Assembly: GCA_005877815.1 (NCBI GenBank) | Contig: VBOG01000013.1 | Location: 2,261 to 66,260 of the forward strand | Direction of reading: 5' to 3' | DNA: 64,000 nucleotides | Origin: Nitrospirota bacterium | GTDB taxonomy: Bacteria > Nitrospirota > Nitrospiria > Nitrospirales > NS-4 | Shown: in pieces, positions 17,757-20,789 of the stretch | How positions within the stretch are numbered: the stretch's first letter is position 1 | Layout of the letters: each line of letters starts with the position of its first letter | Position numbers and translations under genes: made by a program | The notes under the pieces: model-generated | Told to the model about the DNA's origin: nothing | The model's input: the letters and a program-made list of their open reading frames with translations, nothing else | Databases searched by the model: none

Positions 17757-17948
17757 GAATCGCACGGACGAGTTAAATTTGTGATGGAAGGAGAGATGAC
17801 ACATGGGTAAGGTAATCGGGATCGATCTTGGAACAACAAACTCGTGTGTGGCCGTCATGTCCGGAGGCGATCCCGTGGTGATCGCCAATGCCGAAGGGAA
17901 CCGTACGACGCCCTCGGTGGTGGCCATCAACGAGAAAGGCGAGCGACT

Positions 17949-18933
17949 AGTGGGTCAGATCGCCAAGCGTCAGGCGATCACGAATCCTGAGAATACGATT
18001 TATTCCATCAAGCGCTTGATCGGTCGGAAGTTTGAGTCGCGGGAGGTGAGGGAGGCGACCAAACGTTTGCCCTACAAGGTCGTCCCCGCCTCGAATGGAG
18101 ACGCGCATGTGGAGATCCGCGGAAAGCACTATAGCCCCGCGGAGGTGTCCGCAATGATTCTCCAGAAGATGAAACAGACCGCTGAAGATTATCTGGGAGA
18201 GCCGGTGACCGAAGCGGTCATCACGGTGCCCGCCTACTTCGACGACAGTCAGCGCCAGGCCACGAAGGATGCGGGACAGATCGCCGGCCTGAACGTGCTT
18301 CGCATCATTAATGAGCCGACGGCGGCCTCGTTGGCATATGGGCTCGATAAAAAGAAGGATGAGCGGATCGCGGTGTATGACCTCGGCGGCGGTACGTTCG
18401 ATATTAGGCGAAGGCGTATTCGAGGTCAAGTCCACCAACGGCGACACGTTCCTGGGCGGAGACGACTTCGATTTGCGCGTCATGGACTGGCTCGTCGAAG
18501 AGTTCAAAAAAGATCAGGGCATTGACCTGAAAAAGGATCGGATGGCACTGCAACGGCTGAAAGAAGCCGCGGAACGGGCGAAAATCGAATTATCGTCCTC
18601 TCAAGAAACGGAGATCAACCTGCCGTTCATCACGGCGGACGCGAGCGGTCCGAAACATCTTGTGATGAAATTGACGCGGGCGAAGCTCGAGCAATTGGTG
18701 GATGACCTCATCCAACGCACCGTCGAACCGTGCAAGAAGGCCTTGTCGGATGCGGGCGTGTCGGCCAAGGAAATCGACGAAGTTGTCCTCGTCGGCGGCA
18801 TGACGAGGATGCCGAAAGTCATCCAGACCGTGCGGGATTTCTTCGGTAAGGAACCGCATAAAGGAGTGAACCCGGACGAAGTGGTGGCGATCGGCGCCGC
18901 CATCCAGGGCGGCGTGCTGAAAGGCGAGGTCAA
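17949..18933 (+). repeat. dnaK tandem duplication, copy 1 (985 nt, carries the 14-nt deletion)
   Basis: Aligns base for base with 18934-19932, except for a 14-nt gap after 18404 and three substitutions (18505, 18523, 18904). Confidence 0.9.
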
Positions 18934-19932
18934 AGTGGGTCAGATCGCCAAGCGTCAGGCGATCACGAATCCTGAGAATACGATTTATTCCATCAAGCGC
19001 TTGATCGGTCGGAAGTTTGAGTCGCGGGAGGTGAGGGAGGCGACCAAACGTTTGCCCTACAAGGTCGTCCCCGCCTCGAATGGAGACGCGCATGTGGAGA
19101 TCCGCGGAAAGCACTATAGCCCCGCGGAGGTGTCCGCAATGATTCTCCAGAAGATGAAACAGACCGCTGAAGATTATCTGGGAGAGCCGGTGACCGAAGC
19201 GGTCATCACGGTGCCCGCCTACTTCGACGACAGTCAGCGCCAGGCCACGAAGGATGCGGGACAGATCGCCGGCCTGAACGTGCTTCGCATCATTAATGAG
19301 CCGACGGCGGCCTCGTTGGCATATGGGCTCGATAAAAAGAAGGATGAGCGGATCGCGGTGTATGACCTCGGCGGCGGTACGTTCGATATCTCCATCCTGG
19401 AAATAGGCGAAGGCGTATTCGAGGTCAAGTCCACCAACGGCGACACGTTCCTGGGCGGAGACGACTTCGATTTGCGCGTCATGGACTGGCTCGTCGAAGA
19501 GTTTAAAAAAGATCAGGGCATCGACCTGAAAAAGGATCGGATGGCACTGCAACGGCTGAAAGAAGCCGCGGAACGGGCGAAAATCGAATTATCGTCCTCT
19601 CAAGAAACGGAGATCAACCTGCCGTTCATCACGGCGGACGCGAGCGGTCCGAAACATCTTGTGATGAAATTGACGCGGGCGAAGCTCGAGCAATTGGTGG
19701 ATGACCTCATCCAACGCACCGTCGAACCGTGCAAGAAGGCCTTGTCGGATGCGGGCGTGTCGGCCAAGGAAATCGACGAAGTTGTCCTCGTCGGCGGCAT
19801 GACGAGGATGCCGAAAGTCATCCAGACCGTGCGGGATTTCTTCGGTAAGGAACCGCATAAAGGAGTGAACCCGGACGAAGTGGTGGCGATCGGCGCCGCC
19901 ATTCAGGGCGGCGTGCTGAAAGGCGAGGTCAA
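18934..19932 (+). repeat. dnaK tandem duplication, copy 2 (999 nt, intact frame)
   Basis: Contains ctccatcctggaaa at 19390-19403, which is absent from copy 1. 999 nt equals 333 codons. Confidence 0.9.
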
Positions 19933-20789
19933 GGACGTGCTCTTGCTGGATGTCACGCCTCTCACGCTCGGCATCGAAACGCTCGGCGGCGTCACGACGC
20001 GCCTGATCGAGCGCAACACGACGATTCCGACGAAAAAGAGCCAGATCTTTTCGACTGCGGCCGACGGCCAAACAGCGGTGACCATCAATGTGCTGCAGGG
20101 CGAGCGGGAAATGGCGGCCGACAATAAATCCCTCGGTCATTTCGACCTGGTGGGCATTCCGCCCGCTCCACGCGGCGTCCCGCAGGTCGAAGTCACTTTC
20201 GACATTGACGCCAATGGCATCGTCCATGTGTCCGCAAAGGACCTGGCGACCCAAAAGGAGCAATCCATCCGCATTACGGCTTCCAGCGGCCTCAGCAAGG
20301 ACGAGATTGACAAGATGGTCAAGGATGCCCAGGCGCACGCGGCGGAGGACAAAAAGAAGCGGGAGCTCGTCGAAGTCCGGAACGAGGCGGACAACCGTAT
20401 TTACAGCGTGGAAAAATTGCTCACCGAGCATGGCGATAAGATCGGCGAGGACGACCGCAAAAAGATTCAAGACGAGATTGCCGCCGCACGCAAAGCGATG
20501 GAGAGCAACGATCTCGACGCCATCCGCAATGCGACTCAGGCTTTGGTAAAGGCCTCGCAAAAGATCGGTGAAGAGATGTATAAGAAGACGGCGGGCGCCG
20601 GGGCCGCGGCGGGCGCAGGGGAACCCGGAGGACCGGGCGAGTCCGCGGCCGGTGGTAACGGGCAGGCTGATGGGGCTGCGGGCCACACCGATGAGCGCGT
20701 GGTGGACGCGGAATACACTGAAGTAGACAAAGACAAAAAATAAAGATAAATAGATAATTCATGAGGATGCTCCTGAGCTATAACGAGCG

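Follow-up and report, generated by a model that had tools for sequence, protein, structure and literature searches.

A 999-nucleotide repeat inside dnaK of a Nitrospirota contig is probably a false haplotype duplication

In the 64,000-nucleotide stretch of contig VBOG01000013.1 that we analysed (assembly GCA_005877815.1, Nitrospirota bacterium; hereafter the window), the chaperone gene dnaK is interrupted by a long internal repeat and a frameshift. We conclude that this repeat is most likely an assembly artefact, a false haplotype duplication, and not a feature of any genome. The differences between the two copies are alleles that segregate in the same species, and this applies to all three single-nucleotide polymorphisms (SNPs) in dnaK as well as to the one mismatch in a second, shorter repeat in the neighbouring gene grpE. 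None of 13 independent assemblies of the species carries the duplication. Moreover, the haplotype changes at the join, most clearly at the join in grpE. These observations are described below.

The two copies of the repeat unit lie on the forward strand, copy 1 at 17949–18933 (985 nucleotides) and copy 2 at 18934–19932 (999 nucleotides, or 333 codons). They were located by a repeat finder and compared by global alignment. Copy 1 corresponds to DnaK codons 50–382 minus 14 nucleotides, CTCCATCCTGGAAA, which are present at 19390–19403 in copy 2 and missing after 18404 (site 18404/18405) in copy 1. Apart from this single gap there are exactly three mismatches, 18505C/19504T, 18523T/19522C and 18904C/19903T, all at third codon positions and all synonymous in the DnaK frame. 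A 985-nucleotide repeat of 99.7% identity is far above chance expectation, and it is the sole long repeat in the window. An earlier sequence-only reading of the window had reported the repeat coordinates, the gap, the three synonymous differences and a 333-codon unit joined in frame, all of which we reproduced to the base.

The unit begins with the third base of codon 49 and ends with the second base of codon 382, and the identity does not extend past its boundaries (0 nucleotides on the left and 0 on the right). The junction at 18933/18934 (forward strand; GGTCAA/AGTGGG) is blunt, with 0 nucleotides of microhomology. The codon that it splits, AA/A, still encodes lysine, and the in-frame reading is KGEVK/VGQI. 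The end of the 333-codon unit coincides with the point at which the nucleotide-binding domain meets the linker (KGEVK/DVLLLD). A ten-nucleotide sequence, GAAAGGCGAG, which encodes KGE in both contexts, occurs at 17934–17943, 18919–18928 and 19918–19927. Relative to the unit start and to each of the two unit ends it lies in register, five nucleotides upstream, which is more than expected by chance. The join itself is not located at this identity.

As written, the gene is broken into two open reading frames (ORFs) on the forward strand. ORF1 (17803–18525; 240 amino acids) consists of DnaK residues 1–201 followed by 39 frameshifted residues, and matches PF00012 at profile positions 1–200 (E=2.7e-101). 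Its TGA stop arises from 18523T, and an earlier TAA in the shifted frame is abolished by 18505C. ORF2 (18311–20743; 810 amino acids) is a mechanical ORF comprising 31 out-of-frame residues, DnaK residues 206–382, DnaK residues 50–382, the linker, the substrate-binding domain and the C-terminus, and matches PF00012 at profile positions 43–599 (1106 bits). It lacks DnaK residues 1–49, which include the phosphate-binding DLGTTNS loop that is required for ATP binding. The stop of ORF1 at 18525 and the continuation of the second frame through copy 2 to the normal C-terminus agree with the sequence-only reading. Its statement that no intact Hsp70 is encoded is likewise correct for the window, where a tblastn search for a second Hsp70 found only the three dnaK pieces. 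A 640-amino-acid ORF at 54085–56007 was considered as a second Hsp70 and rejected, because it is ThiC.

The Hsp70 family is matched over the whole protein by ORF1 and ORF2 taken together, and also by the de-duplicated gene. When copy 1 is deleted, the resulting DnaK is identical at 651 of 651 residues to the proteins of three other contigs of the species (L001, L100 and L101). An uninterrupted ORF that spans the nucleotide-binding domain, linker and substrate-binding domain is lacking in the window, but is found in all 13 of the other assemblies.

These 13 conspecific assemblies were drawn from ENA scaffold sets, ENA MEGAHIT assemblies and JGI metagenomes, and have a DNA identity of 99.3–99.9%. 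Every one of them has a single uninterrupted dnaK of 1956 nucleotides. We examined ten of the at least 23 contigs that share the DnaJ of the window (L001–L010, from different ENA samples), and each encodes a GrpE of 189 amino acids, one DnaK of 651 amino acids and DnaJ. Three further conspecific contigs from JGI (L100, L101 and L106), found by a degenerate 32-mer scan, also carry a single-copy dnaK. The population contigs continue unbroken over both unit boundaries, which would not normally be expected of a short-read graph if an edge for the junction existed at appreciable depth.

Searches of larger collections gave the same picture. A 27-mer across 18933/18934 has no match in 32 million genome contigs and 241 million metagenome records, and neither ORF1, ORF2 nor the GrpE of 197 amino acids encoded in the window has a record among 153 billion gene positions. 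Among the best 120 DnaK cluster representatives, none is longer than 674 amino acids and none covers more than 76% of ORF2. A search of the literature for natural intragenic duplications of dnaK found nothing relevant. Over approximately 55 kb the window and the population contigs are collinear, with 99.8–99.9% identity and almost no small insertions or deletions (indels). It follows that the genome is not undergoing decay and that the consensus is accurate. We accordingly rejected noise in a long-read consensus as the origin of the 14-nucleotide deletion.

The variable sites of dnaK were tabulated for the 13 population alleles and both copies in the window. All three of the copy-1 SNP alleles are present in single-copy dnaK genes of the same species. 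18505C and 18523T co-occur in the JGI contig L101, and 18904C is a common polymorphism that is found in seven of the 13 (L003, L005, L007, L010, L100, L101 and L106). The intact single-copy dnaK of L101 has C, T and C at gene positions 717, 735 and 1116, which is the combination found in copy 1, and across the join the alleles change to the T, C and T of copy 2. Copy 2 has the commonest allele at most of the polymorphic sites in the panel and no allele that is private to the window. Because all three SNPs are standing alleles and L101 carries them all, the copies represent two haplotypes and not a decaying paralogue. The probability that three random substitutions in the 999-nucleotide unit would match panel alleles is approximately 1e-7. 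The copies of a genuine duplication should diverge by random mutation, whereas these differ where the population does.

Only the 14-nucleotide deletion and the junction are private to the window within dnaK. The deletion occurs in none of the 13 population alleles and has no flanking microhomology. Across the 13 alleles and both window copies there are 19 polymorphic sites, and every one is synonymous. This points to strict purifying selection on dnaK in the species.

A second private duplication lies 1.3 kb upstream of the first, in grpE (17163–17756, forward strand). The gene encodes 197 amino acids in the window and 189 in every other assembly, and the Pfam family GrpE is matched by its orthologue in L001–L010. 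The difference is a tandem duplication of 24 nucleotides at 17596–17643 (forward strand), which is reported by Tandem Repeats Finder as 2.0 copies and appears as an insertion relative to L001. It is in frame and adds eight residues, such that VPTKKQAQ is repeated. Its junction has 0 nucleotides of microhomology, and none of the 14 distinct conspecific contigs that span the site carries it.

The sole mismatch between the two grpE copies, 17603G/17627A, is also a population SNP. In the panel, G at 17603 is linked to 17552T, 17585A and 17648T (L010, L101 and L106), whereas A at this position is linked to C, G and, in most cases, C at the same three sites. The window follows the T-A-G haplotype of L010, L101 and L106 through the first copy, then reads A-C-G-A-C-A-G, the L001 type, from the second copy on. 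Since the switch from T-A-G to A-C falls between the two copies, the haplotype changes exactly where the grpE sequence repeats.

In total, we found four structural differences that are private to the window. In addition to the duplications of 999 and 24 nucleotides and the 14-nucleotide deletion, there is a 76-nucleotide deletion at 44522/44523 relative to five conspecific contigs. This deletion lies in a gene at 44018–44620 (forward strand) and frameshifts the last approximately 40 residues of a HAD-family hydrolase. An exact look-up of the frameshifted 200-amino-acid product returned no record, and with the five reference contigs no haplotype switch is detectable at the deletion. One reference scaffold, L096, has a gap of ten N approximately 60 nucleotides upstream of this site. 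The lengths of two of these private indels are divisible by three and those of the other two are not. None of the four joins has any microhomology (0 nucleotides), and all of them are blunt. Slippage and illegitimate recombination in bacteria usually join sequences at short repeats. The four blunt joins thus mildly favour a non-biological origin, with small statistical weight.

We propose that the sample contained several strains of one Nitrospirota species, and that the duplication was probably made during assembly or contig merging. The true locus would be an ordinary grpE-dnaK-dnaJ operon with one dnaK of 1956 nucleotides. The written sequence would then consist of three pieces placed end to end, whose overlaps were kept rather than merged. 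The first piece would end at 17619. The second would occupy 17620–18933 and re-start 24 nucleotides back in grpE, and the third would run from 18934 onward and re-start 985/999 nucleotides back in dnaK. Each piece would carry the alleles of a different strain mixture, which would confine the differences between the copies to positions that vary in the population. Two private duplications so close together, each juxtaposing population haplotypes, are what is expected from strain pieces laid end to end, and are very hard to obtain biologically. The joins would accordingly be the work of software and not of the cell, and the responsible step was presumably haplotype concatenation in a long-read assembler, the closing of scaffold gaps or the merging of contigs. 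The 14-nucleotide deletion is in our view likely to be a consensus error or a rare variant rather than a fixed lesion.

Genuine duplications in bacteria, studied in Salmonella and E. coli, arise by unequal recombination or by microhomology-mediated template switching. They usually join at direct repeats, and their copies are identical at birth. The repeat in the window resembles them in its head-to-tail arrangement, its kilobase scale and its single novel junction. However, there is no microhomology at the join itself (a ten-nucleotide identity lies five nucleotides upstream), its copies differ at population SNPs and other conspecific assemblies lack the event. Long-read metagenome assemblers are known to concatenate subpopulation-specific versions of a locus that conserved sequence flanks, and to report long direct repeats without read support, while the base consensus is good (bioRxiv 10.1101/2025.04.22.649783). 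In that work, such cases were diagnosed from clipped reads and a drop in coverage. The window is similar to these cases in combining an accurate consensus with a few blunt structural anomalies. In diploid assemblies, false heterotype duplications lead to apparent gene gains that are not real (Ko et al., Genome Biol 2022, PMC9516828). There, likewise, allelic versions adjoin one another unmerged, the copies differ by allelic SNPs and indels, and as a result a gene is spuriously gained or its model is broken. In contrast, those cases involve diploid vertebrate haplotypes and are often found at contig or gap boundaries, whereas the window would involve co-occurring bacterial strains and has an intragenic join with no N gap.

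Several observations weigh against an assembly origin. The junction contains no N and is novel sequence, which a pure de Bruijn assembler is unable to invent. One therefore has to postulate either chimeric reads or a step of layout, scaffolding, gap closing or merging. The 14-nucleotide deletion matches no population allele, and errors in base calling do not typically take this form. The GAAAGGCGAG identity near the breakpoints could be a hint of a biological template switch, although it is not where the join lies. Finally, short-read assemblies tend to collapse near-identical tandem repeats, which makes the 13 single-copy contigs somewhat weaker evidence.

Two other origins were considered and rejected. 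A chimera formed during single-cell amplification (multiple displacement amplification) does not fit a sequence in which population haplotypes are mixed. If the second of the three pieces were a donor fragment inserted by illegitimate replacement, blunt illegitimate joins would be needed at both of its ends, and natural transformation does not normally produce these.

A real intragenic tandem duplication of dnaK codons 50–382, carried by one of the strains or subpopulations in the source sample, appears unlikely to us. The differences between the copies would then be due to recombination with other strains or to the arbitrary assignment of variants by the assembler, and the lineage would be without a functional DnaK unless another copy exists elsewhere in its genome. 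The junction is clean and free of N, and a template switch could have been guided by the ten-nucleotide identity that lies in register close to the breakpoints. Mosaic haplotypes across the panel show that the population recombines, which makes conversion patches in one copy conceivable. Bacteria often acquire tandem duplications, and these collapse easily, such that a transient one could be caught, and the other, short-read assemblies could have collapsed it. However, the junction is missing from all of those assemblies and from every collection searched, and the join is displaced by five nucleotides from the only nearby identity. Such a duplication by itself destroys a gene that tolerates synonymous variation only. 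It also needs a second, independent private duplication nearby that again juxtaposes two haplotypes, and the grpE join is then an unexplained coincidence. We regard as quite improbable the more specific possibility that the window records a natural Nitrospirota lineage with a frameshifted duplication of the DnaK nucleotide-binding domain (codons 50–382). This would be an environmental dnaK-null or split-Hsp70 state seen before its collapse, formed possibly by a template switch near the KGE-coding 10-mer.

The sequence-only reading had offered two explanations, a real but partly decayed duplication and a mis-join of strain haplotypes. The second is strengthened by the population SNPs, the grpE switch and the 13 single-copy dnaK genes, and the first is disfavoured. 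Its decay component, in which a real duplication was followed by the 14-nucleotide deletion and three point mutations in copy 1, is very improbable. The frameshift and all of the differences fall in one copy, which superficially resembles a pseudogenising paralogue. However, all three substitutions pre-exist as population alleles in intact single-copy genes, and the probability of such a match given above effectively refutes decay for the SNPs. Moreover, all three are synonymous, although selection would no longer act on this copy. The duplication also lies within one gene, and hence neither copy is a spare that is free to decay.

It is hardly credible that the two ORFs encode a functional recoded or split Hsp70, expressed through programmed frameshifting or as two polypeptides, with an expanded nucleotide-binding domain. 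In favour of this reading, the unit preserves the frame and stops exactly where this domain gives way to the linker. However, an in-frame length is expected by chance in one of three cases, and ORF2 is without the phosphate-binding loop of the N-terminal residues. Nor is the arrangement conserved. The 14 nucleotides are kept in frame in 13 of the 13 conspecific alleles, and 80 relatives from other species match as uninterrupted, full-length DnaK.

Taken at face value, the window would describe an environmental relative of nitrite oxidisers that lives with no intact Hsp70, and protein databases would gain a truncated Hsp70 and a spurious 'DnaK-like' protein of 810 amino acids. The main value of showing that the repeat is most likely an artefact of strain concatenation lies in quality control. 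Because the contig has at least one more such join, in grpE, and an unexplained 76-nucleotide frameshifting deletion, the gene models of the assembly are untrustworthy at strain-variable sites. The approach used here requires no reads and can be reused on other suspect duplications, by asking two questions, whether the copies differ by standing population alleles and whether the join coincides with a switch of the flanking haplotype.

Other features of the reference contigs concern how this population assembles. The ENA 'CRIT18-1' scaffolds have short runs of N at strain-variable spots, namely L091 at 4024–4107, L007 at window positions 25422–25431 and L096 at window positions 44451–44460. The population thus evidently resists clean assembly in several independent data sets. 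An apparent divergent patch at 10681–10780 was rejected as divergence and is an N gap in L091. At 16134, just upstream of coaX, contigs of two independent assemblies break (the start of L008/L108 and of the Logan contig L109), which suggests a strain-variable or repeat boundary.

The gene order at the locus is valS-nadC-birA-coaX-grpE-dnaK-dnaJ-rsmE. dnaJ (20790–21893, forward strand) is intact, and its exact protein is present on at least 23 other contigs. Compared with the canonical Nitrospirota grpE-dnaK-dnaJ operon, the window has the same coaX-grpE-dnaK-dnaJ-rsmE order and encodes proteins that are identical or nearly identical to those of the population contigs. In contrast, the internal repeat, the 14-nucleotide deletion and the eight-residue GrpE insertion are confined to the sequence as written in the window. 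A search for the CIRCE heat-shock operator gave no matches, and a scan for promoters and terminators found nothing informative.

The organism is a Nitrospirota bacterium. In GTDB, used as a reference set with one genome per species, the best species representatives are metagenome-assembled Nitrospira with 79–83% DnaK identity, and all of these have a dnaK of normal length. The nearest protein clusters are 'Nitrospirae bacterium' DnaK proteins of 644–648 amino acids.

Two further features were noted elsewhere in the window. An ORF of 314 amino acids at 22639–23583 (reverse strand), which has no Pfam matches, contains repeats at 22763–23430. These are four diverged copies (63–75% identity) of a 56-nucleotide segment at a spacing of 123–246 nucleotides, which suggests that the product is an internally repetitive protein. 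All conspecific contigs conserve it. At approximately 58320–59040 (placed from the annotation of L097, 16260–16974), adjoining genes encode a nucleotidyltransferase (PF01909) and a HEPN protein (PF05168), a pair that is a typical toxin-antitoxin-like module.

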